A stretch of 64,000 nucleotides of DNA, taken from assembly GCA_015492645.1 (NCBI GenBank), contig WGER01000068.1, forward strand, positions 23,605-87,604, written 5' to 3'. Positions 1,780 to 64,000 of the stretch are shown one piece after another. Positions within the stretch are counted from its first letter, which is position 1. Each line of letters starts with the position of its first letter. Origin of the DNA: Nitrospirota bacterium (GTDB lineage Bacteria > Nitrospirota > Thermodesulfovibrionia > Thermodesulfovibrionales > JdFR-85). Position numbers and translations under genes: made by a program. The notes beneath the pieces are model-generated. The model saw only the letters and a program-made list of their open reading frames with translations. It did not search any database and was not told the origin of the DNA.

Positions 1780-1847
1780 AGACTGACTCTCCAGAGTTGC
1801 CGCTTATTGTAGTTTTTGACCAAAAGTCTAACGGTAAAGTCGGGGCT
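1780..1847 (+). repeat. Intergenic mosaic repeat, locus A (right part of M2 region + M3 module)
   Basis: GAGTTGCCGCTTATTGTAGTTTTTGACCAAAAGTCTAACGGTAAAGTCGGGGCT aligns with 29424-29480 (GAGTTCCTGCTGCCCACTGTAGTTTTGACCGAAAGCCTAACGACAAATCTGGGACC) and with 8195-8227. Confidence 0.7.
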
Positions 1848-1882
1848 AATAGTGTAGTTTGTGCAAACACCCCGTTTCAGGT

Positions 1883-4429: not shown

Positions 4430-6217
4430 ATGCTTAGACTGAAGAGGACATATGCGATAACCAGAGGTAAGGTGATCTTTGACTACACATCACTTTACTG
4501 TGAAACTCCGGAGGCACTCCTCAGAAGTCCCCTCTTTGAGGAGGTGATCAGGAGGTTTATAAGAAGACATGCCAGCAAGGGGAGTTCCATCTTTGCATTC
4601 CTCAGTTACAATCTCCCCTGGACCTCCAGGGATGAACTGCCCTTCGAGGTGGTCAAACTATTCCGGCTCCTCTTCAGTTACACTGCCGACGAGGTAGCCT
4701 CCATGCACGAGCAATACAGGCCCATACTCTCAGACAGGGAGAACCTCTATGAGTTTGTGGAAGAACTCTACAACTACTGGAGGAGGTTTGAGAGGTTCTT
4801 TTATATAGAGGCCCCTGAGCGGTCCAACCTGCCAAGGAGCACCATCCACCATGCCCAGTTCATCAAGGCAAATGAAGAATTAAAAAATCTTGTCCTTTAT
4901 GTATATAGAAAGATAAGCGAACATATAACAGGAAAGAACCCGAGGGTATACAGGCAGTTGCCTGCAGGTGCAAATATGGGTATGCTCCTTGAGAGGATCC
5001 CCTGGAGGTGTCCTGACAGATACAGGAGACTCCTTGAGGTCCCGTTCATCAGGCTCACCCTGATGGAACCCCCCCTCATCCTGTATCCTGAGATGAACAG
5101 GAGGAAGGGAAGGTTTGAGGAGGTCCATGATATACCCGATGGCGTTCTGGATATAGACCCCTCTGAGTGGTACTGCTTCCCTGCAAAGGTGGGGGAACTG
5201 AATGGGTTTATATACTTCCACCAGGACTTCATATCTCTGGGACTGTCACTTTCAAACCTCTTTGAGATCGCTGATTACGAAGACATACACAATCAGAGGC
5301 CTGACCTGATACTGGTGTTTGGCATCAGGGGGCTCTCCTCAGCAGAGGAGGGTGTGAAGACGGTCTTCTTTGATGACAGGGAAAATGATCTGATGGTTGG
5401 GTTGATTGAACATTCCCCTGAGGTGGACTACTTTGGCTACTTCAAGAAGATGACCCTCACGCTTCACAACATCGTGATGATAAAGAGGGGCAGACTCCCC
5501 CTCCATGGTGCAATGGTCTGTTTAAAACTGAAGGGTGGTGAGAGCGCAAATGTGATACTTGTTGGTGACAGCGGTGCCGGTAAGTCAGAGACACTGGAGG
5601 CATTGAGGGTCCTGGCTGATGAGTACATCTGTGAGATGAGGGTGATCTTTGATGATATGGGTTCCCTCGGTTTAGATGCCACCGGAAGGGTGGTCGGGTA
5701 CGGAACCGAGATAGGTGCCTTTGTGAGACTTGATGACCTGCAGCCAGGGTATGCATACGAGGAGATAGACCGGAGCATCTTCATGAACCCTGACAAGACG
5801 AATGCCAGACTGATAATCCCGGTCACCAGATACCACCATGTGGTGAAGGGATACCCTGTTGACTTCTTTCTCTACGCGAACAACTATGAGCAGGTGGACA
5901 GTGAACACCCTGTGATAGAGTTCTTCCATACCCCTGAGGAGGCATTGGAGGTCTTTCGGCACGGGGCAAGGCTGGCAAAGGGGACAACGGATGAGGTGGG
6001 TCTCGTGCATACCTACTTTGCCAACCCCTTTGGTGCCCCCCAGAGGAGGGACGACCATGAGGTCCTTGCCAGCAGATACTTTGAACTGATGTTCCATCAG
6101 GCTGTGGCTGTGGGCCAGATAAGGACAAGGCTGGGGATCGAGGGATATGAGCAGGAGGGTCCAAAGGAGGCAGCAAAGGGCCTCTTTGAGGTGATGAGAA
6201 GGAGGACGGGCTTCTGA
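4430..6217 (+). CDS. Uncharacterised protein with HprK/PEPCK-superfamily P-loop domain in its C-terminal half
   Basis: LPLHGAMVCLKLKGGESANVILVGDSGAGKSETLEALRVLADEY...VIFDDMG resembles the HPr kinase GxSGxGKSE P-loop followed by DD, and the PEPCK-ATP kinase-1a region. The roughly 350 aa N-terminal region has no motif I recognise. AGGAG lies 6 nt upstream of the ATG. The gene starts 9 nt after the aspS stop and overlaps the next gene by 1 nt (TGATG). Confidence 0.55.
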   Translation: MLRLKRTYAITRGKVIFDYTSLYCETPEALLRSPLFEEVIRRFIRRHASKGSSIFAFLSYNLPWTSRDELPFEVVKLFRLLFSYTADEVASMHEQYRPILSDRENLYEFVEELYNYWRRFERFFYIEAPERSNLPRSTIHHAQFIKANEELKNLVLYVYRKISEHITGKNPRVYRQLPAGANMGMLLERIPWRCPDRYRRLLEVPFIRLTLMEPPLILYPEMNRRKGRFEEVHDIPDGVLDIDPSEWYCFPAKVGELNGFIYFHQDFISLGLSLSNLFEIADYEDIHNQRPDLILVFGIRGLSSAEEGVKTVFFDDRENDLMVGLIEHSPEVDYFGYFKKMTLTLHNIVMIKRGRLPLHGAMVCLKLKGGESANVILVGDSGAGKSETLEALRVLADEYICEMRVIFDDMGSLGLDATGRVVGYGTEIGAFVRLDDLQPGYAYEEIDRSIFMNPDKTNARLIIPVTRYHHVVKGYPVDFFLYANNYEQVDSEHPVIEFFHTPEEALEVFRHGARLAKGTTDEVGLVHTYFANPFGAPQRRDDHEVLASRYFELMFHQAVAVGQIRTRLGIEGYEQEGPKEAAKGLFEVMRRRTGF

Positions 6218-8097: not shown

Positions 8098-8107
8098 CCC
8101 CTTCTGT

Positions 8108-8227
8108 TGCCTAAATTGCCGTTAGAATCTTTCGGTAAGGGTCCCAGGAAAGTCGGAGATTTTTCTGGGCAGGACCCCCAGCCACCTTTTATGTCTTTTG
8201 ACCAAAGTCTAACGGCAGTCTGGGACC
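8108..8227. repeat. Intergenic mosaic repeat, locus B part 1 (inverted M3 - M2 hairpin - M3)
   Basis: CTAAATTGCCGTTAGAATCTTTCGGTAAG (8111-8139) is the inverted complement of the M3 core TTGACCAAAGTCTAACGGCAGT (8198-8219). Between them lies the M2 hairpin CCCAGGAAAGTCGGAGATTTTTCTGGG (8143-8169). Confidence 0.75.
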
Positions 8228-8270
8228 TAACCCCAAATCCGAATTTGACTGAAGTTCAAAATGTTTTCCT

Positions 8271-8413
8271 CTGTCAGGGCAACTTGCCTCAGAACTGAAT
8301 TAATGCGATAGGATTTTATTAAGATCAGGGCTCATCGCATTCAGTTTATGGATGAAGGCTATACATCCGGTCTTACGCACTGGTGGTATCGCTGAATTCA
8401 GGTTCTTCGGCAA
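8271..8413 (+). repeat. Intergenic mosaic repeat, locus B part 2 (M4 - M1)
   Basis: M4 is GCCTCAGAACTGAATTAATGCGATAGGATTTTATTAAGATCAGG (8286-8329), with internal hairpin 8293-8309 / 8334-8346. M1 is CGCACTGGTGGTATCGCTGAATTCAGGTTCTTCGGC (from 8376). Confidence 0.7.
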
Positions 8414-8465
8414 GTTGTCCTGACACTGACTATGGTCAATTTAGGATTTTGGCTAATCCAAATCC

Positions 8466-8496
8466 TTGACAATAAAGGCTTCACATGGGTTATCAT
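8466..8496 (+). promoter_or_regulatory. Possible promoter of yebC operon
   Basis: TTGACA at 8466-8471, then TATCAT at 8491-8496 with a suboptimal 19-nt spacer. A leader follows with GAAGGAGGG before GTG 8524. Confidence 0.3.
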
Positions 8497-8523
8497 AAAT
8501 AGTTATGTTTGAAGGAGGGTCAT

Positions 8524-19612: not shown

Positions 19613-19709
19613 AGGCACCGAATTTGTCTTTGCTTCAGGGGTCTCACAGAATCAGAGATTTTGCTGGACAGAGGAGCCCCCGCCCTGAAAGATCAAGGAT
19701 TTTCCAGGG
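19613..19709 (+). repeat. Intergenic mosaic repeat, locus F (M1 - M2), between two minus-strand genes
   Basis: M1-like AGGCACCGAATTTGTCTTTGCTTCAGG (19613-19639). M2 hairpin CCCTGAAAGATCAAGGATTTTCCAGGG (19683-19709), with a compensatory A-T to T-A swap at stem position 4 relative to 29396-29422. Confidence 0.65.
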
Positions 19710-19730
19710 GATACCTGTATCAAAAAAGAT

Positions 19731-27243: not shown

Positions 27244-28185
27244 TTATTCTCTGTAGATACATTCCTCGGGCCTTTTGTCACTCCTGAGCCCGAGGAAGAC
27301 AGGTGCCCTCAGTTTTCCAGACTCGGTCCACTCCATGGCTGTCACCCTTACCACTGTATCGGGTATTACCCATCTCACCCCTGAGGGATGCTCAAATAAG
27401 GGGACCCCTGTCTCCTTTTCTCTGAGTATCTCTATAATCTCTCTCCTCTCCTTCTCAGTAAAGCCTGTGCCAACCTGGCCGATATGGACAAGTGTACTGT
27501 TCCTGTAAAGGCCCAACACAAGGGAAGCAAAGGGCCTCTTCTCTGAGTCGATCCATCCGCAGACAACAGCGTCTATATCGATCGTCTTCTTTATCTTAAG
27601 CCAGGAGCGTGACCTCACACCTGGCTGGTATAGACTCCTTCTCTCCTTTGCCATGATCCCTTCAAAGCCCCTCTTTACAGCCTCTCTAAAGAGGGGTATC
27701 CCCTCTCTGTAGGTCCTTGAGATGATGATATGTTCACCCTCCCTCACCAGTTCCTCAAGCAGTCTCCTCCTTTCCATCAGGGGCCTTTTGAAGAGTCTCT
27801 CCTGTCTGAAGTAGAGTATATCAAAAACGATATACATGGCAGGAGACAGCCTTGAGAGGATGGATATCCTGTGCGGGTCAGTGATGTGCTCCCTCCTCTG
27901 GAGAGTCTTAAAATCAGGTACACCTTCCTTTAACATCACAATCTCTCCATCCAGTATGACATCCTCTCCATCAACTGCCTTAGCAAGGGAACCAAACTCG
28001 GGATACCTGTAAGTGATATCCAGAAGTCTCCGGTTCTGAAGCCTTACATTGCTACCCTGGATATAGGCTATACACCTTGTGCCGTCCCATTTGAGTTCAT
28101 AGAGGAATTCTTCAGAGTCCAAGGGTTCCTTAGCCTTTTCTGCAAGCATGGGTTTTATAGGCCAGCATTTAAAGGGCGAGGCCAT
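27244..28185 (-). CDS. ligD: ATP-dependent DNA ligase, LigD ligase domain only (no polymerase or phosphoesterase domains)
   Basis: Adenylation motif I YELKWDGTRCIAY (KxDG). Also GEIVML, EGIMAK, WLKIK, and a C-terminal OB-fold region. 313 aa. It lies directly downstream of ku. Confidence 0.85.
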   Translation of the reverse strand: MASPFKCWPIKPMLAEKAKEPLDSEEFLYELKWDGTRCIAYIQGSNVRLQNRRLLDITYRYPEFGSLAKAVDGEDVILDGEIVMLKEGVPDFKTLQRREHITDPHRISILSRLSPAMYIVFDILYFRQERLFKRPLMERRRLLEELVREGEHIIISRTYREGIPLFREAVKRGFEGIMAKERRSLYQPGVRSRSWLKIKKTIDIDAVVCGWIDSEKRPFASLVLGLYRNSTLVHIGQVGTGFTEKERREIIEILREKETGVPLFEHPSGVRWVIPDTVVRVTAMEWTESGKLRAPVFLGLRSDKRPEECIYRE

Positions 28186-28193
28186 TGACTGGA

Positions 28194-28988
28194 TTATCCA
28201 GCAGTCTTTCTTTTCCGGGTCTTTGGCTCTGTTACAGAGAGACTCTTCTTCAATGCCTCCATGAGACTCACAACCCTTTCGGCCTCTCTTGCTGGTTTTA
28301 CCTTCACCTCTCCACCGCTTATCTTCTGATTGATCAATTCCATCAGGGCCTCAGTGGACCTGTCGTGATACTCTGAGATATCAAAACGTGCAGAAAATCT
28401 CTCCACCAGTTCCTCTGCAAGGGCGAGGGCCTCCTTGCTCACCTCCATCTCTTCCGGTATGGTGATAAAGTCTGTACTTGCGATCTCGTTGGCGAAGTGG
28501 AGTGTATGGATTGCGAGGACCTTCTGATAGGGTCTGAGAATACCTATATGTTCTTTCCCCCTCATGGCAAACCTCAGGAGCCCGACTCTTCTCTTGTTCT
28601 GAAGGGCCTTCTTCAGCAACAGATATGCCTCAAGGCCATCCTTCTCAGGAGCGAGATAGTAGGTGCTATCAAAATAGACAGGATCAATCTCCTCTAAGGG
28701 TACAAAAGAGATTATCCTGATCGCCCTGCTTTCTTCCCGGAAGAGGGACTCCAGTTCCTCATCAGAGATGATCACGTATCTGTCCTTTTCATATTCATAA
28801 CCGTGGGTCACATCGGACCACTCTACCTCTTTCTGGCAGGTGGGGCAGTACCTCTCATATTTCAGATGAGTGGAGCAGGCCTTATGCAGTAGATGCAGCG
28901 GGACCCCTCTCTTTCTGACGGCAGAGTAGAGTTTTACAGGCACAGAAAGCAGGGCTACTGATAGATTCCCCTTCCACAGGGCCTTCAT
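28194..28988 (-). CDS. ku: Ku protein (non-homologous end joining)
   Basis: ALWKGNLSVALLSVPVKLYSAV...YERYCPTCQKEV...GYEYEKDRYVIISDEELE is the typical bacterial Ku core. The C-terminal tail is basic. Confidence 0.9.
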   Translation of the reverse strand: MKALWKGNLSVALLSVPVKLYSAVRKRGVPLHLLHKACSTHLKYERYCPTCQKEVEWSDVTHGYEYEKDRYVIISDEELESLFREESRAIRIISFVPLEEIDPVYFDSTYYLAPEKDGLEAYLLLKKALQNKRRVGLLRFAMRGKEHIGILRPYQKVLAIHTLHFANEIASTDFITIPEEMEVSKEALALAEELVERFSARFDISEYHDRSTEALMELINQKISGGEVKVKPAREAERVVSLMEALKKSLSVTEPKTRKRKTAG

Positions 28989-29035
28989 AGTTATAAGATA
29001 CCATACTATCCGGCAGTATCACAAATAAGGTAAAT

Positions 29036-29217
29036 TGGCCATGGCACTTGTGGTGTCACTGAACAGATTGGTTCTGGCCACTGAATTATCAAATGAGTGA
29101 AACACTCGTAATTTTTCTGCAGGAGCCTCTCTGTCCCACAAAGTCTCTGATTTGGAGGGGGATCCCCTGCCGCCTTCCAAAGTTTTGCTTGAATCCTTTC
29201 GGTAATATGGAGGGACC
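29036..29217 (+). repeat. Intergenic mosaic repeat, locus C part 1 (M1 copy followed by degenerate modules)
   Basis: GCCATGGCACTTGTGGTGTCACTGAA (29038-29063) matches 29347-29372 at 25 of 26 positions, 309 nt apart. Downstream fragments (AATTTTTCTGCAGGAGCC, GAATCCTTTCGGTAATATGGAGGGACC) resemble the M1 tail and inverted M3 of locus B. Confidence 0.7.
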
Positions 29218-29480
29218 GGACCGTAGATTGCCGTTAGAAATGTGTGCTTTTGCGGCAGGGACTGCCTCAAAACATGATTTATGCGACAATTTTAATCAAA
29301 AGATTTCAGCCTTTTTTCACCTAATAGGTGAAACGTCATTACATTTGCCATGGCACTTGTGGTGTCGCTGAAATTCTGATTTTTCGGCAGGGGTTCCCAG
29401 GAAAATCGTGGATTTTCCTGGGCTGAGTTCCTGCTGCCCACTGTAGTTTTGACCGAAAGCCTAACGACAAATCTGGGACC
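29218..29480 (+). repeat. Intergenic mosaic repeat, locus C part 2: most complete cassette (inverted M3 - M4 - M1 - M2 - M3)
   Basis: Inverted M3 at 29223-29257. M4 at 29264-29311, sharing the 18-nt identity AACATGATTTATGCGACA with 48136-48153. M1 at 29347-29390. M2 is a perfect 10-bp hairpin, CCCAGGAAAATCGTGGATTTTCCTGGG, at 29396-29422. M3 at 29446-29480. Confidence 0.8.
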
Positions 29481-29493
29481 GGATATATTTGTT

Positions 29494-29521
29494 TTGGAAG
29501 ACAGTGGTTTTAGTGTATAAT
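29494..29521 (+). promoter_or_regulatory. Putative promoter of nrdJ-pdxJ-acpS-nnr operon (leaderless)
   Basis: TTGGAA (29494-29499) - 16 nt - TATAAT (29516-29521) - 5 nt - ATG 29527. No Shine-Dalgarno sequence. Confidence 0.45.
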
Positions 29522-29526
29522 TTAAT

Positions 29527-31257
29527 ATGCTTCAACTGTCACAGAATGCCCTCAAGGTGCTGAGAGCGAGGTATCTACTGAAGAATGAAAGGGGAGAGGT
29601 GGTTGAGACACCTGAGCAGATGTTCCACAGGGTGGCCACTCATGTTGCTTCCAGCGAGGATCTCTATGGTGGTGACAGGGCATACTGGCAGGAGAGGTTT
29701 TATGATATTATGACATCCCTCAGATTTCTGCCAAATTCTCCCACCCTGATGAATGCTGGCAAGGAACTTGGCCAACTCGCCGCCTGCTTTGTCCTTCCTG
29801 TGGAAGACTCGATGAAGAGCATCTTTGATACACTCAAACATGCGGCCCTGATTCTGCAGAGCGGGGGAGGTACAGGGTTTTCCTTTTCCCGCCTTAGGCC
29901 GAAATCCGATATCGTCAAGTCTACAGGTGGGATTGCGAGCGGTCCGGTATCATTTATGAAGATATACAATACTGCCACTGAGGTGATCAAGCAGGGCGGT
30001 GCAAGGAGAGGGGCAAATATGGGTATCCTGAGGGTTGATCACCCGGATATACTCGAGTTTGTCAGGGCGAAGATGGACAGAGAGGAACTGACCAATTTCA
30101 ACATCTCTGTGGCTATTACGGATGAGTTTATGGAGGCATTGAAGAGGGATGGTTATTACAATCTCATTAATCCAAGAACAGGACAGATGGTCGGGAGGCT
30201 AAAGGCCCGTGAGGTCTTTAACGAGATGGTCAGGTGTGCATGGCTTACCGGAGATCCAGGACTGGTGTTTATAGACAGGATCAACAGAGACAACCCCACC
30301 CCCCACCTCGGCAGGATAGAGAGCACAAACCCCTGTGGAGAACAGCCACTTCTTCCCTACGAGGCCTGTGTACTCGGTTCTATCAACCTCTCAAAGTTTG
30401 TACTCAACCCGATCACGGATAACCCTGACAATACCCCGACAATAGATTACCAGAGATTGAGGGATGACATATACACTGCTGTAAGGTTTCTTGATGACTG
30501 CATAGATGCCAGCAGGTATCCGCTTGAGGAGATTGAGAGGATGCACAAGGGGAACAGAAAGATCGGTCTCGGTGTTATGGGGTGGGCGGATATGCTGGTG
30601 ATGCTGGGTGTCCAGTACAACTCCCGCAGGGGGTTCAGACTTGCAGAGGAGGTGATGGGTTTTATCCAGAAGACATCAAAGGAGGCATCTCAAAGACTGG
30701 CTGAGGAGAGGGGTGTATTCCCCAATTTTAAGGGCTCAATATACGACAGGCCGGGTATGCCGAAGGTGAGGAATGCCACAACCACCACCATAGCGCCCAC
30801 AGGCACCCTTTCAATCATTGCAGACTGCTCAAGCGGCATTGAACCCTATTTTGCCCTTGCCTACAAGAGGTATGTACTGGATACAGAACTGCCAGAGGTG
30901 AACAGGTACTTCTTCAAACTGGCAAAATTGATGGGTTTTTATTCACCTGAACTGGAAAGGGAGGTGATCAGAAAGGGGAACCTGAGGGGGGTGAAGGGGG
31001 TCCCGACAAAGGTGAAGAAACTCTTCAAGACTGCACTTGAGATACCTCCTGATGACCATATCGAGATGCAGGCGTCCTTTCAGAGACATACTGACAATGC
31101 GGTATCAAAGACGATAAATCTTCCAAGGTCAGCAAAACCTGAGGATGTGGAGAGGGCCTTCCTGCTCGCCTATGAGAAGGGTTGTAAGGGGATAACCGTT
31201 TTCAGATATGGCTCCAGGAAGAGGGGCACATTGGTGAGGTTTGATGATACCTATTGA
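29527..31257 (+). CDS. nrdJ: Adenosylcobalamin-dependent (class II) ribonucleotide reductase
   Basis: NALKVLRARYLLKNERGEVVETPEQMFHRVA, PNSPTLMNAG, GGGTGFSFSRLRP, STNPCGEQPLLPYEACVLGSINL and AVSKTINLP match the compact monomeric-type class II RNR. Confidence 0.85.
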   Translation: MLQLSQNALKVLRARYLLKNERGEVVETPEQMFHRVATHVASSEDLYGGDRAYWQERFYDIMTSLRFLPNSPTLMNAGKELGQLAACFVLPVEDSMKSIFDTLKHAALILQSGGGTGFSFSRLRPKSDIVKSTGGIASGPVSFMKIYNTATEVIKQGGARRGANMGILRVDHPDILEFVRAKMDREELTNFNISVAITDEFMEALKRDGYYNLINPRTGQMVGRLKAREVFNEMVRCAWLTGDPGLVFIDRINRDNPTPHLGRIESTNPCGEQPLLPYEACVLGSINLSKFVLNPITDNPDNTPTIDYQRLRDDIYTAVRFLDDCIDASRYPLEEIERMHKGNRKIGLGVMGWADMLVMLGVQYNSRRGFRLAEEVMGFIQKTSKEASQRLAEERGVFPNFKGSIYDRPGMPKVRNATTTTIAPTGTLSIIADCSSGIEPYFALAYKRYVLDTELPEVNRYFFKLAKLMGFYSPELEREVIRKGNLRGVKGVPTKVKKLFKTALEIPPDDHIEMQASFQRHTDNAVSKTINLPRSAKPEDVERAFLLAYEKGCKGITVFRYGSRKRGTLVRFDDTY

Positions 31258-41977: not shown

Positions 41978-44558
41978 TTCCGAGCAGCCTCTTCAGTTCT
42001 CTCTGTAATTGTCTCAATTTTTTTATCGCATCCTGGGGGCTGAGTCCGTCTGGATCTATTGCCAGGAGCCTCCTCATGATAGGTTCATAGTCTACGCTGA
42101 AGAGATCCAGTTGGGCCGCCTTCTGCTGACACCTGCCTGATGGCCTTGGGCTGAAGGGAGATGAAAACTCCGCCTTCTCAAGGTTATGGAGCACCTCTTT
42201 CGCCCTGTTCACAGCCTCCTCTGGTAGTCCCGCAAGCCTTGCCACATGTATCCCGTAACTCTTGTCTGCCGGGCCCTCCTGCACCTTCCTCAGGAATATG
42301 ATCTCATCACCCCACTCCTTCACCACCACATTGAAGTTCCTCACCCCCTCGTTGTTTATCACCAGTTCTGTGAGTTCATGATAATGGGTTGCAAAGAGTG
42401 TTCTTGCCTTTATCCTGTGCAGGATATACTCAGCCACTGCCCATGCTATGCTTATGCCATCAAAGGTGCTTGTTCCCCTGCCAACCTCATCGAGCAGTAT
42501 GAGACTCCTGTCTGTGGCATTGTGGAGGATGTTTGCTGTCTCTATCATCTCCACCATAAAGGTGCTCTGGCCACGGGAGAGAAAGTCTGAGGCACCGATT
42601 CTTGTGAAGATCCTGTCTACAAGCCCTATCCTTGCCCGGGAGGCAGGCACAAAGGAGCCGATCTGGGCCATAAGCACAATAAGGGCCACCTGTCTCATAA
42701 AGGTGGACTTACCAGCCATGTTAGGCCCTGTGATGATCAGCAGTCTCTGGCCCTCGTTATCCAAGTAGGCACTGTTTGGTATAAACCGTTCCTGAGTTGT
42801 CCTCTCAAGCACAGGATGCCTTCCATCTGAGATGTCTATTACATAGGAGTCATCGACAGAGGGCCTGTTGTAGTTGTTTCTTCTGGCTACAACAGCGAGA
42901 CAGAGGAGGAAGTCCAGTTCTGCAAGTGCCTCTGCGGTGGAGAGCAAACAGTCAGCCTCCGCTGCCACCTCTTCCAGGACCCCCTGGAAGACCTCGTATT
43001 CAAGCGCCTTCAGTTTCTCCTCTGCACCAAGGACCTTCTCTTCATACTCCTTCAACTCCTCTGTAATAAACCTCTCAGAACCAACCAGTGTCTGTTTCCT
43101 TATATAGTCCTTTGGGACCAGGTGGAGGTTCGGTTTGGTCACTTCAATGTAATAGCCAAAGACCCTGTTATATCCTACCTTAAGGGACTGGATGCCTGTC
43201 CTCTGTCTCTCCTTCTGCTCCAAGGCTGCTATGTAGTCCCTGCCGTGGGTGGCGAGTCTCCTCAGTTCATCGACCTCCTTATGAAAACCACTCTTTATGA
43301 TTCCTCCGTCCCTCAGGCCGTGTGGAGGGTCATCCACTATCGCCTTATCTATCAAATCCATTATGTGGGAGAACTCTCCTATTGATTCCCTCAGGATCCT
43401 GAGCCGATCTGCAGTAGCATCCCTCAGGGTCTGCCTGATGGATGGAAGTACCTCCAACGAGTTCTTTACTGCCACCAGGTCCCTGCCGTTTGCAGTCCTG
43501 TTAACTATCTTAGTGGAGAGCCTCTGGAGGTCCCCCAGTCTCTGCAGGTATGTCCTGAGGGACTCCTGCATATGGAGGTCTCTGAACAGGTTCTCCACCG
43601 CATCCAGTCTCTCCTGTATCAGGGTGAGGTCCACCAGCGGCCTCAGGACCGCCTGTCTCAGGTATCTGCCACCCATGGGGGTGAGCGTCTCATCCAGCAC
43701 ACTCAGCAGTGTACCCTCATGGGTTCCATCCCTCAGGTTTCTCACAAGTTCAAGGTTCTTCTTCGTGTAAGAATCAAGGAACATGTACTGTCCCTGTCTG
43801 TCCACCTTTGGTGGCCTTAGTGTGAAGGATTCTCTAAGGTTTTCTCTCAGATACTGCAGAAGGGCACCGGCAGCAGACACCGCCTCAGACTCATTCTCAA
43901 TCCCGAATGTCTCGAGGGCATAGACCCTGTAATAATTGACCAGGTTCCTGTAGGCTTCTGTGTAGTCGTAGTACCACTCGTCCAGATAACTCACATACAG
44001 GCCATCAAGGGCCTCGCTGAAGTGTATATCCTCTCTTACCCTTTCAGGACAGAGGACCTCCCTTGGTTCAAACCTCTCTATCTCATCCCTCACCGCCTTT
44101 TCACTCTGATAGAGGAGAAACTCTCCTGTGGACAGATCAGCAACAGCAAAGCCTGCCCTGTGGCCTGATGGGTAGATGCTCATGATGTAGGTGTTCTCCT
44201 TGGGCTCCATGGGTGTGTGGGTGCCTGCGGTTATGACCCTTACAACCTCTCTCTTTACAATCCCCTTTGCCTGTTTCGGGTCCTCTACCTGTTCACAGAC
44301 TGCCACCTTGTAGCCCGCATTGATCAGTTTGGTTATATAGGATTCTGCTGCAAAGTGGGGCACACCGCACATTGGTACAGGGTCCTCCCTTCCCTTGTCC
44401 CTGCTGGTGAGAGTGATCTGAAGGACCTTAGAGGCGACAATTGCGTCATCACCGAACATCTCATAGAAGTCCCCAAGGCGGAAGAAGAGGATACAGTCAG
44501 GGTATCGGGCCTTGATCTCCTGATATTGTCTCATCAGAGGGGTAGCACCTGAAGACAT
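41970..44558 (-). CDS. mutS: DNA mismatch repair protein MutS
   Basis: TPLMRQYQEIKARYPDCILFFRLGDFYEMFGDDA, Walker A ITGPNMAGKSTFMRQ, and SLILLDEVGRGTSTFDG. 862 aa. Confidence 0.95.
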   Translation of the reverse strand: MSSGATPLMRQYQEIKARYPDCILFFRLGDFYEMFGDDAIVASKVLQITLTSRDKGREDPVPMCGVPHFAAESYITKLINAGYKVAVCEQVEDPKQAKGIVKREVVRVITAGTHTPMEPKENTYIMSIYPSGHRAGFAVADLSTGEFLLYQSEKAVRDEIERFEPREVLCPERVREDIHFSEALDGLYVSYLDEWYYDYTEAYRNLVNYYRVYALETFGIENESEAVSAAGALLQYLRENLRESFTLRPPKVDRQGQYMFLDSYTKKNLELVRNLRDGTHEGTLLSVLDETLTPMGGRYLRQAVLRPLVDLTLIQERLDAVENLFRDLHMQESLRTYLQRLGDLQRLSTKIVNRTANGRDLVAVKNSLEVLPSIRQTLRDATADRLRILRESIGEFSHIMDLIDKAIVDDPPHGLRDGGIIKSGFHKEVDELRRLATHGRDYIAALEQKERQRTGIQSLKVGYNRVFGYYIEVTKPNLHLVPKDYIRKQTLVGSERFITEELKEYEEKVLGAEEKLKALEYEVFQGVLEEVAAEADCLLSTAEALAELDFLLCLAVVARRNNYNRPSVDDSYVIDISDGRHPVLERTTQERFIPNSAYLDNEGQRLLIITGPNMAGKSTFMRQVALIVLMAQIGSFVPASRARIGLVDRIFTRIGASDFLSRGQSTFMVEMIETANILHNATDRSLILLDEVGRGTSTFDGISIAWAVAEYILHRIKARTLFATHYHELTELVINNEGVRNFNVVVKEWGDEIIFLRKVQEGPADKSYGIHVARLAGLPEEAVNRAKEVLHNLEKAEFSSPFSPRPSGRCQQKAAQLDLFSVDYEPIMRRLLAIDPDGLSPQDAIKKLRQLQRELKRLLGIG

Positions 44559-44564
44559 AGAAAT

Positions 44565-44570
44565 ATTATA
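44565..44570 (-). promoter_or_regulatory. Putative -10 box of mutS operon (leaderless)
   Basis: Minus strand reads TATAAT (44570-44565), 6 nt before ATG 44558. No Shine-Dalgarno sequence. Confidence 0.4.
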
Positions 44571-44582
44571 ACTGAAGGTTCA

Positions 44583-44645
44583 GTAGAAAGTCGCCCTGGG
44601 TTAAAGCCGGATTTTGCCGTTAGGAATGACTGTTTTTACCACGGG
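44583..44645 (-). repeat. Intergenic mosaic repeat, locus E (partial, inverted M3) in the mutS/acn divergent region
   Basis: GGATTTTGCCGTTAGGAATGACTGTTTTTACCAC (44609-44642) aligns with inverted M3 copies at 8111-8139 and 29223-29257 (core TTGCCGTTAGAA). Confidence 0.55.
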
Positions 44646-44673
44646 TTCTTGCCGTCCTTAGATTCCTTTGAGG

Positions 44674-47868: not shown

Positions 47869-47943
47869 TGGCTGGGGCGGGAGGATTCGAACCTCCAAAT
47901 GGGAGATCCAAAGTCTCCTGCCTTACCCTTTGGCTACGCCCCA
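47869..47943 (-). tRNA. tRNA-Gln (anticodon UUG), CCA encoded
   Basis: The reverse complement reads TGGGGCGTAGCCAAAGGGTAAGGCAGGAGACTTTGGATCTCCCATTTGGAGGTTCGAATCCTCCCGCCCCAGCCA. The acceptor stem is TGGGGCG/CGCCCCA. The anticodon stem-loop is GGAGA-CTTTGGA-TCTCC. The T-arm is GGAGGTTCGAATCCTCC. The U1-A72 pair is typical of bacterial tRNA-Gln. Confidence 0.9.
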
Positions 47944-47961: not shown

Positions 47962-48119
47962 CAGAGAAATACCCTGAGTGTAACCTCACGAAAGGTTCTT
48001 CTTCAATTTGGTTGGTTTCAGAAAAGGTATTTTTGATTACAAAGTTGTGAAATATTCAATCTTTAACTTGGAATTCCCCGTGCTCATGCCACTGGGATGA
48101 AATGCTGTAATAACCACCA

Positions 48120-48347
48120 GGCCGCCCTGCTTCAGAACATGATTTATGCGACAGATTTTATCCATAAAAAGTCCAATGTCTTATCAGGTAGTGTTGAAGG
48201 TTATTATTTTGTCAGAGGCACTGTCGGTGTCGCTGAAATCCCTGATTTTTCAGCAGGGCGGCCTATCCTAATTTTTCAGGAAAAGATACCTCGTGGTCTT
48301 GCCACAGGGTAGTCCATTTGACCAAAATTCTACTCGCAATTAGGGAT
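48120..48347 (+). repeat. Intergenic mosaic repeat, locus D (M4 - M1 - degenerate M2 - M3)
   Basis: M4 is GCTTCAGAACATGATTTATGCGACAGATTTTATCC (from 48129). M1 is AGGCACTGTCGGTGTCGCTGAAATCCCTGATTTTTCAGCAGGG (48216-48258), containing hairpin GCTGAAA/TTTCAGC. M3 is CATTTGACCAAAATTCTACTCGCAATTAGGGAT (48315-48347). Confidence 0.75.
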
Positions 48348-48380
48348 ATTTTATGGAGTGGGTCAGAAAGGCGAGAGGTT

Positions 48381-48389
48381 TGATATAAT
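48381..48389 (+). promoter_or_regulatory. Putative extended -10 promoter of trkA operon (near-leaderless)
   Basis: TGATATAAT at 48381-48389, 8 nt before ATG 48398. No Shine-Dalgarno sequence. It is the same nonamer as the tRNA-Gln promoter. Confidence 0.5.
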
Positions 48390-48397
48390 CATTACCT

Positions 48398-49744
48398 ATG
48401 AGGGTGATCATAATAGGCGCAGGAGAGGTGGGTTATCATCTGGCGAGGTTCCTCTCCAGGGAGAGGGATGTAGAGGTGGTTGTGGTTGACACTGACAGCC
48501 AGAAACTGAGGAGGATCAGTGAAGAGATGGATATTGCCACCATAGAGGGTGAGGGTGGTTCGCCTGAGGTCCTGAGGGAGGCAGGTGCAGATGATGCCGA
48601 TATACTGCTGGCTGTGACAAACAGTGATGAGACGAACATGATCGCCTGTCTTGTTGCGAAGGCCCTCTTCAATGTAAAGAGAAAGATCGCCAGGATAAGG
48701 AACCGAGAGTACTATACAAACCAGAAGTTGCTTTCACCAGAGAATCTCGATATAAACCCGGCCATAAATCCCGAGTATGAGAGTGCAAAGGCGATACTCA
48801 GGTTGATAGATGTCCCCTTCGCATACGATGTGGAGGAGTTTGAGAATGGTCAGATCAAGGTGCTCGGGCTTAAGGTTGAGGAGGACTCGATAATAACGGG
48901 CAGGAGTCTGAGGGAGTTCCGTGAGAAGACAAAGGAGAATCTATTAATAGGGATAATACAGAGGGAGGACAGGGCGATCATACCAAGGGGTGATGACAGG
49001 GTGAAAATGGGTGACATCATCTACCTGCCTGTACACAAAGATGATGTGGAGAGGGTGGGTGCATTCCTTACCAAGGGACCCAAGGTGGTGAGGAAACTAA
49101 TGATTGTGGGTGGTGGGAGGATAGGCTTTACCGTGGCATCAGAACTGCAGGGTAGAGATATAACGGTAAAATTGATAGAGAAGGATCCTGAAAGGTGTAA
49201 GTACATATCCAAGAGGCTCAAGAACATTATAGTCCTTCAGGGTGATGGCTCAGACAGGGGTCTTCTGGAGGAAGAAAACATCCGGGACATGGACCTGTTT
49301 GTTGCCCTCAGTAACAATGAAGAACTGAACATCATGTCCTCGCTGCTTGCAAAGAGGCTTGGTGTAAAGAAGGTAATAACCCTGGTAAACAGGACGGACT
49401 ACATCACCCTTGCCAACAACCTGGGCATTGAGGTCGTTATCAGTCCGAGGCTCATCACTGCCAGCAGGATACTCAGATATGTGAGGAGGGGAGATATACT
49501 GAGTCTGACTGCTATCGCTGAGGACATGGCGGAGATCATTGAGGCTAAGGTGGCTGGGGGCTCCAGGTTTGTGGGTAGACCTCTGAAGGATGTCGGTCTA
49601 CCAAGGGATGCCCTGGTAGGGGCGATAGTGAGAGGGATGGAGGTCATAATCCCTGGTGGTGAAGATGCGGTAAGACCAGAGGATCGTCTCATAATCTTTA
49701 CCCTCAGGGAGGCGATCAAGGCGGTGGAAGAGTTTCTCCTATGA
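48398..49744 (+). CDS. trkA: Trk potassium uptake system NAD-binding subunit (tandem RCK domains)
   Basis: MRVIIIGAGEVGYHLARFL, and a second Rossmann fold at LMIVGGGRIGFTVA. 448 aa. Confidence 0.9.
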   Translation: MRVIIIGAGEVGYHLARFLSRERDVEVVVVDTDSQKLRRISEEMDIATIEGEGGSPEVLREAGADDADILLAVTNSDETNMIACLVAKALFNVKRKIARIRNREYYTNQKLLSPENLDINPAINPEYESAKAILRLIDVPFAYDVEEFENGQIKVLGLKVEEDSIITGRSLREFREKTKENLLIGIIQREDRAIIPRGDDRVKMGDIIYLPVHKDDVERVGAFLTKGPKVVRKLMIVGGGRIGFTVASELQGRDITVKLIEKDPERCKYISKRLKNIIVLQGDGSDRGLLEEENIRDMDLFVALSNNEELNIMSSLLAKRLGVKKVITLVNRTDYITLANNLGIEVVISPRLITASRILRYVRRGDILSLTAIAEDMAEIIEAKVAGGSRFVGRPLKDVGLPRDALVGAIVRGMEVIIPGGEDAVRPEDRLIIFTLREAIKAVEEFLL

Positions 49745-53187: not shown

Positions 53188-54461
53188 GGAGACTTCGGAG
53201 ATGGCTTTTAATACTCTCGCTTCCTTTAATTGCGATTGTTGTCGCCTATGTGGTCTATAAACTCTTTCTTGTTCCTCCTCCAAAGGTGACAGGAACAGAG
53301 GCCTTTGTGACCCTTGGAAGAGAAAAGACCGTCACATTAAAGGGAGAGAACATCAAAAGGATAGAGATAGCCCTGGTTCAGGGTTCCAAGAGGGTGAGTA
53401 TCCTGAGGGACTCACCAAGAAAGGGAGAGGTTACCTATGAGTTAAGGATCAGACCAAAAGACCTCGGGCTTATGGACGCCCCGGCCAGGGTGATTGTGGA
53501 TGCCTCTTCAGGGATATTGAAGAAGGTCCACATGGAGATTGACACTGTAATTGACACTGTCCCGCCACAAATGGATGTCCTCGATGCACCGGGAGTGGTA
53601 AGTACAGGAGAGGCGGCAGTGGTGACACTTCAGGTGAAGGGTGCCTCTGATGTAAACCTCTGGTTGGGGGAAATGGGGTTCAGGGCCTTTCCTGTTGGTG
53701 AGGACAGATATGTGTGCATATTCCCTGTACCCCACAACACAGGGACAGATACCACAATATACGCTGCTGCAGAGGACGATGCCGGAAACAGGACCGTGAG
53801 GTCTCTGAATATAAGGATAAGGCGGAAGAACTATCGGGTGTCCACCATCACAATAGATGATGAATTCATGCAGAGGGTTGTCTATCCATTGCTCGGAAAG
53901 ATGAACTCTGATGATCCGGTCAGGGATTTCAAAGAGGTGAACGAGGTCTGGAGACAGAGGGATATCCAGAGGCTCAGACAGATAGGTGCCAAGAGTACCT
54001 CAGAGAGGCTCTGGAGAGGGAGGTTCCTGCAGATGCAGAACAGCAAGGTGATGGCAAGGTATGGAGACATGAGATATTACAGATACAGAGGTGAGGTGAT
54101 AAGCAGCAGCGTCCACCTCGGTTATGACCTCGCATCTGTGAAGGCTGCCCCTGTGGAGGCAGCCAACAGGGGCAGGGTGGTCTTTGCAGGCACCCTCGGC
54201 ATATATGGCAATACCGTAATTATTGATCACGGCCTCGGTGTGATGAGCCTGTATGGACATCTCTCCAGGATTATGGTGAAGGAGGGCGAGGAAGTGGAAA
54301 GGGGTAGCATAGTGGGAAGAACGGGGGCGACTGGTTTTGCAGGAGGAGATCACCTCCATTTCGGAATCCTTGTACAGGGTGTCGAGGTCTCACCCCTTTA
54401 CTGGTGGGACAAGAGGTGGCTTAAACAGAGGATTGTTGATAGACTCAGAGATGTTACTTGA
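53184..54461 (+). CDS. Membrane-anchored M23 family metallopeptidase
   Basis: N-terminal TM segment LLILSLPLIAIVVAYVVYKLF. The C-terminal LytM domain has HLGYDLAS, GNTVIIDHGLGVMSLYGHLS and GATGFAGGDHLHFGI (HxxxD ... HxH). Confidence 0.8.
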   Translation: MRRLRRWLLILSLPLIAIVVAYVVYKLFLVPPPKVTGTEAFVTLGREKTVTLKGENIKRIEIALVQGSKRVSILRDSPRKGEVTYELRIRPKDLGLMDAPARVIVDASSGILKKVHMEIDTVIDTVPPQMDVLDAPGVVSTGEAAVVTLQVKGASDVNLWLGEMGFRAFPVGEDRYVCIFPVPHNTGTDTTIYAAAEDDAGNRTVRSLNIRIRRKNYRVSTITIDDEFMQRVVYPLLGKMNSDDPVRDFKEVNEVWRQRDIQRLRQIGAKSTSERLWRGRFLQMQNSKVMARYGDMRYYRYRGEVISSSVHLGYDLASVKAAPVEAANRGRVVFAGTLGIYGNTVIIDHGLGVMSLYGHLSRIMVKEGEEVERGSIVGRTGATGFAGGDHLHFGILVQGVEVSPLYWWDKRWLKQRIVDRLRDVT

Positions 54462-55794
54462 TACTGATGCCGTAGGCCCTTATCTTTCTATGGAGGTTGC
54501 TCCTCTCAATCTGCAGGACCTCTGCAGTCTTGCTTATATTGAAGTTATTCTCCTGGAGTTTTTTTATAATGTAATCCCTTTCAAAGGCCTCCTTCGCCTC
54601 CTTCAGCGTTGGTATTGAGAAGTAGTCCTTTTTGCCGAGTTCGTAAAAGGTGATGTCTTTATCAGTAATGGTATCACCGGGTGTCATTATCACCATCCTC
54701 TCTATAATGTTTTTCAGTTCCCTTACATTTCCAGGCCAGTCGTATTCCTGTAACACCTTCAGGGCCCTTTCAGTGATGCCCTTCTTCGGCCTGCCGTGTT
54801 CACGGGATATCTCTTCCAGGAAGAAGTCCACCAGCATAGGGATGTCCTCCTTTCTCTCCCTCAGAGGAGGAACATGAAGTGGTATCACATTCAGTCTGTA
54901 ATAGAGGTCTTCTCTGAACCTTCCTTCTTTCACCTCCTCCCGGAGGTCTTTATTTGTTGCTGCTATTATCCTCACATCAACCTTGATGTTCTTACTACCA
55001 CCCACCCTCTGGAACTCCTGTGTCTCGATCACCCTGAGGACCTTCGCCTGTGTCTGTAGAGACATGTCACCTACTTCGTCCAGAAAGAGGGTTCCGCTGT
55101 TTGCCAGTTCAAACTTCCCCTTTTTCCTCTCATATGCACCTGTGAAGGAACCCTTCTCGTGGCCAAAGAGTTCACTCTCTATCAACTCCTGGGGTATGGC
55201 AGCACAGTTCACCTCAACAAATGGGCCCTTAGCCCTCGGAGATTTTTCATGGATGAGCCTTGCCACCAGTTCCTTGCCCACTCCACTTTCACCGGTAATC
55301 AGCACCCTGCTTGAACTGAGTGCCACGGCCTCTATCTGTTTCTTGAGGACCTTAATAGGGTCTGATTCACCGACCAGTTGCCACCTGCCCTTGAGGTCCC
55401 TCCTGAGGGCCTGGAACTGTCTCTCTAAGGTCCCCCTCTCCAGTGCCCTCTGGGTGGTGAGCAGGACCCTCTCTAAGGAGAGGGGTTTTTCAAGAAAATC
55501 ATAGGCCCCCAGTTTTGTCGCCTTTACTGCCTGCTCTATAGTGCCATGGCCTGAGATTATAACCACCGGTATATCAGGCCTCTTCGCCTTGATCTCTTCC
55601 AGGACCTCGATACCGTCTCTATCAGGCAGCCAGATGTCAAGAAACACTATATCCGGTGAGTACTCCTCGATGAGGCCCATGGCCTCTCTTGCATCAGGGG
55701 CCTTCAGGACCTCGTAGCCCTCGTCCTCAAGGATATCACCCAGGCTCTTCCTTATACCCTCCTCATCGTCCACTATCAGAACTGTATAGGCCAT
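54454..55794 (-). CDS. ntrX: Sigma-54-dependent response regulator (REC - AAA+ - HTH), NtrX/NtrC-like
   Basis: REC domain VLIVDDEEGIR...DIVFLDIWLPDRDG. AAA+ region [22 protein letters not shown] loop variant GSFTGA, and ESELFGHEKG. There is a C-terminal Fis-type HTH. Confidence 0.88.
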   Translation of the reverse strand: MAYTVLIVDDEEGIRKSLGDILEDEGYEVLKAPDAREAMGLIEEYSPDIVFLDIWLPDRDGIEVLEEIKAKRPDIPVVIISGHGTIEQAVKATKLGAYDFLEKPLSLERVLLTTQRALERGTLERQFQALRRDLKGRWQLVGESDPIKVLKKQIEAVALSSSRVLITGESGVGKELVARLIHEKSPRAKGPFVEVNCAAIPQELIESELFGHEKGSFTGAYERKKGKFELANSGTLFLDEVGDMSLQTQAKVLRVIETQEFQRVGGSKNIKVDVRIIAATNKDLREEVKEGRFREDLYYRLNVIPLHVPPLRERKEDIPMLVDFFLEEISREHGRPKKGITERALKVLQEYDWPGNVRELKNIIERMVIMTPGDTITDKDITFYELGKKDYFSIPTLKEAKEAFERDYIIKKLQENNFNISKTAEVLQIERSNLHRKIRAYGISIK

Positions 55795-58328: not shown

Positions 58329-58535
58329 GTCCTTTGCAGTGTAACTGAACAAGGTTACACACAAATAAAATTCATCGCATGGTTGGCACTGCCCACATTC
58401 TATATAATTGAGACAGTCCCTGCTACATTTTTAGAGATTTGTAATGACAAATCAATCAGGACTATCCAGCCACTTGCCTGAATGGACTATAACATTATAT
58501 CATATTTAACTGTATTAAACTCGTAGGAGGTGGAA

Positions 58536-59018
58536 ATGGAATTTGAGGCCATCAGTTTGGAGATACCAGAGGGGTGCAATATTATCCTCGGCCAGACCCA
58601 CTTCATAAAGACGATCGAGGACCTCTATGAGATCATAGTCACCTCTGTACCGCAGGCAAGGTTTGGTGTTGCCTTCACTGAGGCATCGGGGCCCTGTCTG
58701 GTAAGGAGAGAGGGAAATGATCAGGCACTCATCGATGCCTGTGTGAAGAATCTCCTGAGGATAGGAGCAGGTCACGTCTTCTGTATCCTGCTCAGGGATG
58801 CCTACCCGATTAACATTCTCAACCAGATAAAGAACTGTCAGGAGGTCTGTCGGGTCTTCTGTGCCACTGCCAACCCTGTGGAGGTGGTGGTTGTGAGGAC
58901 AGGACAGGGTGGAGCGGTTATTGGTGTTGTGGATGGATTCGGGCCGAAAGGGGTGGAATCAGAAGAAGACATAAGGCATAGAAAGGAATTCCTCCGGAAG
59001 ATCGGGTATAAACTATGA
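58536..59018 (+). CDS. Adenosine-specific kinase family protein (PF04008-like)
   Basis: [44 protein letters not shown]...[43 protein letters not shown] matches my recollection of this small family. ATG 58536 has AGGAGG 6 nt upstream; the track start is GTG 58530. Confidence 0.6.
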
Positions 59019-62308: not shown

Positions 62309-63038
62309 CGGTGAGAGTACCTTAGAACTTGATGACCCTGTGGCAGTGGAGCAGAGGCTCAGGATACTGGTGAATGGGACCCCTGTCCTGAGCCTGCTCT
62401 GCAGTCCTGTCATGGTGAGGGAACTGGTCACGGGTCTTCTTATGACAGAGGGGATAATCAGGGGTGAGTGGTGTGCTGAGAGGATGAGCATTGTCTATTC
62501 TGAGAACGGAGAGATCACAGTGGATGTGCCTGCAGAAGGTGAAGTGGTGCTTGAAGGGGGCACCATTACCTCTGGATGTGTGGGTGGTATCACCTTCGAG
62601 ATACCAGCAGAGGAGGTGCCTGTAGCGGGGGGTCCCTATCTCACCTCTGCAGATCTCGTATCCCTGTTCAGGACATTTCAACAGGCCTCAACCCTATATA
62701 ACCTCACCGGGTGCGTGCATACTGCTGCGGTCTCTGATGGGAGGCATCTGATTGTCCTTGCAGAGGATATAGGCCGGCATAATGCGGTGGACAAGGCAGT
62801 CGGCTACTGTCTCCTTGAAGGGATACCCCTGTCTGATAAGATAATGCTCGTGAGCGGGAGACTCTCCTCCGAGATGGCAAAGAAGTGTTCCCGATGGGGG
62901 ATACCGATGGTGGTGAGCAGGACCGCACCAACCACAAGGGCGATTGAGATAGCAGAGCGGAGGGGAATAACTATGATAGGCTTTATGAGGGGAAAGAGAT
63001 TCAACATATATACCGCACCTGAAAGGATTCTATCTTAG
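62271..63038 (+). CDS. fdhD: Formate dehydrogenase accessory sulfurtransferase
   Basis: [31 protein letters not shown] (active-site Cys loop), [17 protein letters not shown], and [11 protein letters not shown] start; overlaps the GGDEF gene end. Confidence 0.85.
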
Positions 63039-64000
63039 TCTTCTGCTTCGCCTATACCATACTTTGCAAGCCTGTGCCGGAAGGACCTGAAGGAGAGGTT
63101 GAGAAGTTTTGCTGCCTCGGTCTTCACCCCTGAGGCTATCTCGAGGGCCTTTTTTAAATAGGTGATCTCAATCTCCTCGAGCAACCTGTCAAGGTCAATC
63201 CCCTTTTCAGTCAGTTCAGGCAGACCTCCAGGGCTGCTGTTCTGTTGCTGGAGTTCTGATGGTAGATCCTCGGGCAGGATGATCTCCCTTTCAGTCAGTA
63301 ATAGTATCCTCTCAATCATATTTTCCAGTTCCCTCACGTTCCCCTTCCACTCGTACTCAAGGAGTCTCTTCATCGCCTCTGGAGAAAACCTCACGTTCTC
63401 AGCCCCGGCCTTTTTCAGGAAGTGCTCAACAAGCAGGGGTATGTCCTCCTTCCTCTCTCTCAGCGGTGGAATCCTTATCGGGATGACATTGAGGCGATAG
63501 TAGAGGTCTTCCCTGAATCTGCCCTTCTGGGTCTCTTCTTTCAGGTCTTTATTTGTGGCTGCTATTATCCTTACATCGACCTTTATGTCAGAGGTGCTCC
63601 CGAGTCTCCGGAAGGTGCCCGTTTCTATCACCCTGAGGAGTTTTGCCTGAAGTTGGAAGGGCATTTCTGCAATCTCGTCCAGGAATATGCTGCCTCCGTC
63701 TGCGATCTCGAAGAGCCCCTCCTTGTTGTGCGTGGCCCCGGTAAATGCCCCCTTCATGTATCCAAACAGTTCGCTCTCGAGAAGGCCCTCTGGCAGGGTG
63801 GCACAGTTAATGGCCACGAACTGCTTTTCAGCACGGGTGCTGAGGTTGTGTATTGCCCTTGCCACCAGTTCCTTTCCAGAGCCGCTTTCTCCTGTAATCA
63901 GCACATTGGAGTTGCTCCTTGCTATCTTTGGTAGTGCCTGCATCAACTCCTGCATCTTCTTGCTTCTGCCAATTATGTCCTCAAGCCTGTAGGTAGTCTT
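63035..64000 (-). CDS. Sigma-54-dependent transcriptional activator (AAA+ and Fis-type HTH visible; N-terminal sensory part lies beyond the right edge)
   Basis: [34 protein letters not shown] (GAFTGA), and [10 protein letters not shown]. The C-terminal HTH reads [21 protein letters not shown]. The reading frame stays open upstream of the track Met ([19 protein letters not shown]...) to base 64000. Confidence 0.85.

Follow-up and report, generated by a model that had tools for sequence, protein, structure and literature searches.

What kind of element fills the long spacer upstream of nrdJ and recurs in other intergenic gaps nearby? We addressed this question in the window, i.e. the whole 64-kb (64,000-nucleotide) stretch of DNA analysed, for which a sequence-only reading had proposed a strictly intergenic, modular repeat family with conserved hairpins, made of four short modules (M1 to M4). 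Such a family is real. All seven intergenic gaps of at least 135 nt share sequence with other gaps, far above shuffled controls, each of them beating 60 of 60 shuffles on its match to another gap (28-72 bits for the real gaps; 27 bits for the best shuffle). Self-BLAST of the intergenic gaps aligned 29262-29392 with 48127-48258 (73% over 134 nt; E = 5e-15), 8275-8399 with 48118-48240 (E = 1e-6), 8127-8227 with 29379-29480 (70% over 103 nt; E = 1e-7) and 29031-29063 with 29340-29372 (91%), with weaker matches at 1798-1849, 19627-19717, 44607-44637 and 58408-58450. When at most one mismatch was allowed, TCTAACGGCA matched the window 7 times, against 1.6 matches expected by chance from dinucleotide shuffles, and TTTTGACCAAA 5 times, against 0.7. 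Reading of the gaps confirmed the coordinates previously given for M1 to M4 and the match at 25 of 26 positions between two M1 copies (29038-29063 and 29347-29372). The M2 hairpin at 29396-29422 was likewise recovered, its stem being of 12 perfect bp and not of 10 bp as claimed, while an M1 copy placed at 19613 gave no covariance-model match.

The modules were found to assemble not into the linear string M4-M1-M2-M3 originally described but into two hairpin units, which we term X (M4 and M1) and Y (inverted M3, M2 and M3). Altogether, X occurs in the 64 kb as three full copies and one fragment, and M3 about 10 times, always at intergenic sites adjoining unrelated genes. In unit X (~150 nt), M4 is the 5' arm and M1 the 3' arm of one imperfect rod of 26-30 bp; the two make up a long inverted repeat that encloses a variable core of about 60-75 nt. 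The inverted arms measure ~45 nt. From the outside inwards, they comprise a variable stem of 6-14 bp that is different in every copy, the conserved CUGCC/GGCAG, a 2x2 UC/UC internal loop, AGAAC.../...GUUCU, an AU/UG internal loop and GCGACA/UGUCGC. The core displays small AU-rich and UCA/UGA hairpins together with the conserved strings GAUUUUAU, GUGAARG and GGCACUKNNGG, and the strings conserved at the inner junction read GCGACAG(G)AUUUUAU, GUGAARG and GGCACUKNNGGUGUCGCUGAAAU. A covariance model (R1), built from four copies, subsequently found a fifth. The copies of X in the window are as follows:

29250..29400, + strand: X copy D, upstream of nrdJ and nested in Y; R1 139.6 bits, E = 2e-37; RNA fold z = -3.1; 78% identical to copy F
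48115..48266, + strand: X copy F, upstream of trkA and within a decayed Y; R1 150.8 bits; RNA fold -53 kcal/mol, z = -5.1
8272..8423, + strand: X copy B, upstream of the yebC promoter; R1 138.5 bits; RNA fold z = -6.4; 53-56% identical to the other copies and thereby the most divergent of the window
29031..29063, + strand: solo X 3'-arm fragment (M1), 91% identical to 29340-29372; partial model match (positions 93-115)

The X copies are old and divergent, with pairwise identities of 53-71%, and the identity among window copies does not exceed that to a copy from the related genome JdFR-85. No reading frame across X is conserved between copies, and none of 10 X-derived open reading frames was found in the protein collection.

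Unit Y (~125 nt) consists of an inverted M3, the M2 hairpin and a direct M3. An nhmmer profile of M3 gave 10 matches in the window, and the copies of Y and of its parts are distributed as follows:

8104..8232, + strand: complete Y, made of inverted M3 (8104-8147), M2 (8143-8169) and M3 (8181-8230)
29215..29263, - strand: inverted M3, the left Y arm around X copy D; nhmmer E = 1e-6
29396..29482, + strand: right Y arm, M2 hairpin (29396-29422, 12 perfect bp) and M3 (29432-29482); nhmmer E = 1e-7; 70% identical to 8127-8227 by self-BLAST
29134..29219, + strand: degenerate M2'-M3' half unit that meets the inverted M3 tail to tail; found by alignment; nhmmer E = 0.002
48295..48349, + strand: decayed M3 facing trkA; nhmmer E = 8e-4; 67% identical to the flank of copy D
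1799..1849, + strand: solo M3 facing a rluB-like gene; nhmmer E = 7e-7; BLAST match to 29432-29471
44602..44648, - strand: solo M3 facing mutS (- strand); nhmmer E = 4e-4; BLAST match to 29221-29251
19634..19723, + strand: between obg and a hydantoinase gene, two hairpins resembling M2 with a weak M3-like tail; found by alignment; nhmmer E = 0.065; BLAST matches to 8128-8172 and 29388-29440
58415..58454, + strand: degenerate M3 upstream of the gene at 58536; nhmmer E = 0.015

Two of these, the degenerate M3 at 58415-58454 and the M2'-M3' pair at 29134-29219, are additional to those recognised from the sequence at first; self-BLAST also matched 29119-29152 to 19683-19650. The complete Y starts 7 nt past the stop codon of the RACo gene. 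Its + strand has a folding energy of -47.7 kcal/mol and z = -2.9, whereas the - strand gives z = 0.04. When 29205-29495 is folded, the segment 29215-29263 pairs with 29432-29482, that is, the two Y arms close around X.

X lies inside Y, between the left M3 and M2, both at 29.2 kb (nrdJ) and at 48.1 kb (trkA), and the two stand side by side at 8.1-8.4 kb, upstream of yebC. The 29-kb cluster, cluster D, additionally contains the solo X arm (29031-29063) and the degenerate M2'-M3' pair (29134-29219). The 540-nt spacer between the ku and nrdJ core promoters is almost entirely repeat material. A terminator-like hairpin with a T run (29093-29119, + strand) follows the solo X fragment, with no + strand gene upstream of it. 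At the left edge of cluster F (48 kb) stands a tRNA-Gln gene (anticodon ttg; 47869-47943, - strand), divergent from trkA. Repeats are known to break assemblies, and a contig of a metagenome-assembled genome (MAG) of the same species (ERZ23495063 scaffold_8780) begins exactly at the 3' edge of X in cluster D, corresponding to window position 29391, which suggests that its assembly broke on the repeat. Because X and Y occupy all the long intergenic gaps, coincide with synteny breakpoints and disrupt MAG assemblies, they are relevant to the assembly and annotation of genomes of this clade. To our knowledge, small interspersed repeats have hardly been described in Nitrospirota.

By its NrdJ and YebC, the window belongs to an uncultured Nitrospirota lineage of the Thermodesulfovibrionia type. 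We then compared it with contigs of the same species (GCA_027053865.1 and ERZ23495063) and with the nearest other genomes, whose NrdJ is 82-85% identical (JdFR-85, the Ga0314854 genome and GCA_054045905.1). A strict X pattern, run against 185,579 species genomes and the JGI metagenomes, collections that do not include the window's own genome, matched one other locus, in JdFR-85, directly after a radical-SAM gene. A fifth, divergent copy (44.9 bits, E = 8e-11) separates queD from a phosphoribosyltransferase gene in the Ga0314854 genome. A second X covariance model revealed no more copies in ~150 kb of relatives or in the 9.3 kb to the left of the window. In JdFR-85, the density of X amounts to one copy in ~60 kb, with one strict-pattern match in the whole genome. 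X is thus common to at least three species, at low density. Y was seen in the window's species only, the M3 profile giving no match in the 150 kb of relatives. A loose X pattern gave 11 chance matches in viral contigs and a tighter one none, and no match was obtained in plasmid and phage collections.

At all three orthologous sites tested (nrdJ, yebC and queD), the element is present in one genome and absent from its relatives, the difference being one between species and not between strains. (i) At nrdJ, the three relatives have a spacer of 77-94 nt behind a rodZ-like gene, without X or Y. (ii) At yebC, JdFR-85 and the Ga0314854 genome share a TTGACA...TATGAT promoter, again without X or Y. 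(iii) At queD, the Ga0314854 genome has X in a spacer of 205 nt, and the X-less spacers of JdFR-85, GCA_054045905.1 and GCA_027050975.1 measure 57-102 nt. Among three same-species assemblies, no element was gained or lost: the cluster D region differs by only two SNPs, both within X, and the called-gene spacing at the yebC and trkA sites is as in the window. Repeat clusters coincide with breaks in synteny. The break at 29 kb falls exactly at the ku/ligase pair, the relatives having the rodZ-like gene upstream of nrdJ. Upstream of yebC (8098-8523), the window has RACo followed by Y and X, the Ga0314854 genome an 8.8-kb gene block (L027:1215-10001) and JdFR-85 a BREX/PglZ-type defence island (L025:9166-10001). 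The pair directly to the left of cluster D encodes Ku and an ATP-dependent DNA ligase, an end-joining repair module (27244-28988, - strand). Since both lie between RACo and yebC, orthology of X copy B with the Ga0314854 copy (copy K; L027:3189-3327) was considered; it was rejected, as the two are 55% identical and no closer than other pairs. The 3' outer arm of copy K, CTCTGTA, is the exact reverse complement of TACAGAG, a string present in the X-less orthologous spacer of JdFR-85 (L030:1527-1628); this match hints that X either inserted into an inverted flank or created one.

The explanation that we find somewhat probable is that X and Y are two families of small hairpin repeats, non-autonomous and mobile or formerly mobile, akin to MITE, REPIN, ERIC or Correia elements, which nest in one another and decay. 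The repetition, the hairpins, the nesting and the presence or absence at orthologous sites are observed, whereas transposition, an enzyme responsible for it and any effect on expression are inferred. Copies would have inserted into short spacers just upstream of core promoters or just past stop codons, and into one another, as X between the left M3 and M2 of Y, and would afterwards have decayed to solo arms. Either selection or a copying mechanism would have maintained the hairpins, with compensatory changes as a result. If transcribed, the elements would fold into long RNA hairpins, with possible consequences for read-through or for the stability of the mRNA. The mosaic state of the loci (nesting, solo arms, tail-to-tail units), the synteny breakpoints and the lack of a conserved open reading frame or of an Rfam family all support mobile repeats. 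In size (125-150 nt), non-coding nature, copy number and insertion polymorphism between species at orthologous sites, the units resemble MITEs. As for terminal inverted repeats, Y has inverted M3 ends, but the inverted arms of X differ in their outermost 6-14 bp from copy to copy. Several observations speak against mobility: the boundaries of X copies B, D, F, J and K show inverted flanks and no consistent direct repeat that would represent a target-site duplication; no transposase gene occurs in the 64-kb window, and no RAYT (Y1 transposase) gene in the window or in 9 kb beyond it; the X copies are old and divergent, and seem few in relatives; and the three same-species assemblies display no polymorphism. 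The conservation of X, with variable ends and an invariant inner junction and loops, is moreover the reverse of that of transposase-bound terminal repeats, and is unusual for a MITE. On present evidence, X and Y would represent a well-documented, ordinary kind of element.

The divergence of X, its variable ends, its identity relative to its flanks and the lack of a target duplication keep alive another reading, possible though improbable in our view, by which X is a new structured non-coding RNA family, a P1-P3 rod closing a small multi-branch junction, kept by a host function and not by mobility. X would then act in cis within transcripts, or might be a processed RNA that binds a protein at its conserved loops and junction, and the modules of Y would be unrelated junk or regulatory DNA around it. 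The structure of X is under constraint. An alignment of five X copies, which represent three species, shows pairing in 92.8% of stem cells and changes on both sides in 10 of 26 pairs, values reached by none of 500 column shuffles; pairing falls to 38-49% when partner columns are slid. RNAalifold predicted 30 pairs from the same five copies, 13 of which are compensatory. The outermost stem is the least conserved part, differing in sequence from copy to copy and yet paired in every one, and the inner junction strings and the two internal loops (2x2 UC/UC and AU/UG) are invariant. When the composite copies D and F are compared, their X parts are 78% identical, versus just 57-67% for the flanks. 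The stems contain ~8 G-U pairs versus 3-4 A-C mismatches on the + strand, which is also the more stable strand in three of four copies, and every copy has a neighbouring gene on the same strand. All of this would fit an RNA. However, the G-U excess is not significant, and the two strands differ little in how well they fold. X adjoins unrelated genes, has no promoter or terminator at its flanks that its copies share, and is missing at all three orthologous sites tested in close relatives. At D and F, X lies between a divergent upstream gene and a sigma-70-type promoter on its downstream side, so that its transcription is not assured. Compensatory changes have also been documented in the hairpins of mobile REPINs (PMC3116915), so that covariation is compatible with mobile DNA and is by itself no proof of an RNA gene.

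A bolder combination, which we think distinctly unlikely, would make X a previously undescribed structured nucleic acid (RNA or single-stranded DNA), restricted to an uncultured Thermodesulfovibrionia clade and spreading by insertion into hairpins, its junction and loops being bound by a host- or element-encoded protein; Y/M3 would be a mobile regulatory cassette with a fixed module at about -64 of leaderless promoters. Were X truly a functional RNA, or were M3 to act on promoters, this would represent mobile DNA that spreads structure or regulation through a compact genome of leaderless genes.

The promoters to which this refers are as follows:

29494..29521, + strand: TTGGAA-16-TATAAT, the sigma-70-type promoter of leaderless nrdJ, in agreement with the consensus at 10 of 12 positions
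29516-29527, 48384-48398 and 1883-1898; 44558-44570 and 28988-29010 (both - strand): TATAAT-like boxes

The nrdJ promoter lies downstream of the repeat cluster, its -10 box ending 5 nt ahead of the ATG at 29527. For nrdJ, trkA, the rluB-like gene, mutS and ku, a TATAAT-like box stands 5-9 nt before the ATG and no Shine-Dalgarno sequence is present, so that these genes are probably leaderless; the MAG gene call for mutS begins 24 nt further in. In the five gene-facing copies, M3 keeps a single register: 46, 46, 45, 44 and 46 nt separate its core from the -10 box (a consensus match only) at rluB, nrdJ, trkA, mutS and the gene at 58536, respectively. This spacing places the core near -64 and TTGACC near -80, and the starts of TTGACC and CTAACGG are 11-12 bp apart, i.e. 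one helical turn. Such regularity could reflect targeted insertion, selection for an upstream promoter function, or very short original spacers. The second of these would make M3 a promoter-upstream DNA site, for a transcription factor or for contacts of the RNA polymerase alpha subunit, that was spread by the repeat, with the hairpins as by-products; Neisseria Correia elements, which carry IHF sites and create promoters (PMC2649163), offer a precedent. We regard this as distinctly doubtful. The 150 kb of relatives contain no M3, not even at the orthologous nrdJ and yebC promoters, so that M3 does not qualify as a regulon site under conservation; at nrdJ, the -10 region appears to be ancestral. 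One half of the M3 copies either point away from promoters or lie 240-300 nt off them (8104-8147, 8181-8230, 29169-29219 and 29215-29263), and short original spacers would in any case have forced insertions near promoters.

The sequence-only reading had called the family BIME-like, and only the coarse layout of units in alternating orientation with linkers bears this out; the palindrome with GTAG that defines a REP does not appear. REPs are defined as palindromes of 20-50 nt with GTAG ahead (PMC8266576). M3 does not form one, five units folded alone as DNA giving -1.9 to -3.7 kcal/mol (z = 0.09 to 0.77), and X and Y are therefore not true REP/BIME elements. Copies A and D have GTAG immediately 5' of TTTTGACC, and F has it 4 nt before TTTGACC; B, G and the inverted copies lack it, so that GTAG is a feature of some M3 copies only. 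That a strict REP/BIME mobilised by a RAYT (TnpA-REP) enzyme is present is very improbable: the layout of Y (REP, inverted REP and linker), the solo units and the GTAG of copies A, D and F would agree with it, but M3 is not palindromic (z = 0.1 to 0.8), most copies lack GTAG, no Y1 transposase gene lies in the window and X has no REP-like subunits.

Set beside the closest known systems, the repeats show both likenesses and differences. Like REP, BIME and REPIN sequences with their RAYT, Y consists of two inverted conserved units around a linker that form a hairpin, as in the definition of a REPIN. Solo units resembling decayed remnants, mosaics of alternating orientation and compensatory hairpin changes are further likenesses (PMC3116915). 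The copies described here are, however, far more divergent than typical REPIN populations, and the window contains no RAYT gene. The Correia elements of Neisseria (CREE/NEMIS) are also non-coding, intergenic, 100-160 bp in length, bounded by inverted repeats and folded into long hairpins, with many copies by unrelated genes near promoters and a presence that differs between related genomes (PMC2649163). In contrast to X, whose ends are least conserved and which shows no duplication and no sequence similarity to them, Correia elements are best conserved in their 26-bp terminal repeats and have a TA duplication as well as a defined IHF site. Enterobacterial ERIC/IRU sequences are imperfect palindromes of ~127 bp in which internal insertions can occur at fixed sites, as X in Y, and BOX elements of Streptococcus pneumoniae (where RUP and SPRITE also occur) are modular (A-B-C), as are the units here (PMC3049150, PMC2229807). 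ERIC/IRU, BOX, RUP and SPRITE belong to another phylum and share no sequence similarity with X and Y; their transcription and effects as RNA have been shown, whereas X and Y are known from sequence alone. With rod-shaped RNAs such as 6S RNA and Y RNA, X has in common a long closing helix, conserved internal loops and junction, and covariation; unlike them, it has no Rfam match (E <= 10), several copies per genome, no promoter or terminator of its own and no synteny between species.

Other candidate identities were rejected. Rfam searches with four copies returned nothing relevant, only chance snoRNA and miRNA matches appearing at E <= 10, and in the window tRNA-Gln alone passed the gathering threshold; the statement that no named family matches therefore stands at either cutoff. 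Since extra copies do exist outside the window, the alignments are better than those of shuffles and no known family was matched, nothing was found that would overturn the initial proposal of a new element. A riboswitch or 5' leader is incompatible with the unrelated nature of the downstream genes (yebC, nrdJ, trkA and queD) and with the position of the elements, which precede the sigma-70-type promoters (-35/-10 boxes) of leaderless genes. The next two identities were dismissed by reading the sequence directly. Integron attC sites begin with R'' (RYYYAAC) and end with its pairing partner R' (GTTRRRY); Y displays the reverse order, GTTAGA...TCTAAC, and neither an integrase nor a cassette array accompanies it. 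A sigma-54 promoter carries GG and GC elements in a fixed -24/-12 register (TGGCAC-N5-TTGC). The TGGCAC of M1 is followed by GT at -12, and the nearest GC is 3 nt too far in all copies.

Two further features of the window were recorded. A pair of sigma-54 activator paralogues (54454-55794 and 63035-63955, both - strand) share nucleotide stretches of 74-83% identity (families D1 and D14). An open reading frame of 595 aa (4430-6217, + strand), between aspS and the RACo gene, has no Pfam domain and is conserved in the same-species contigs.
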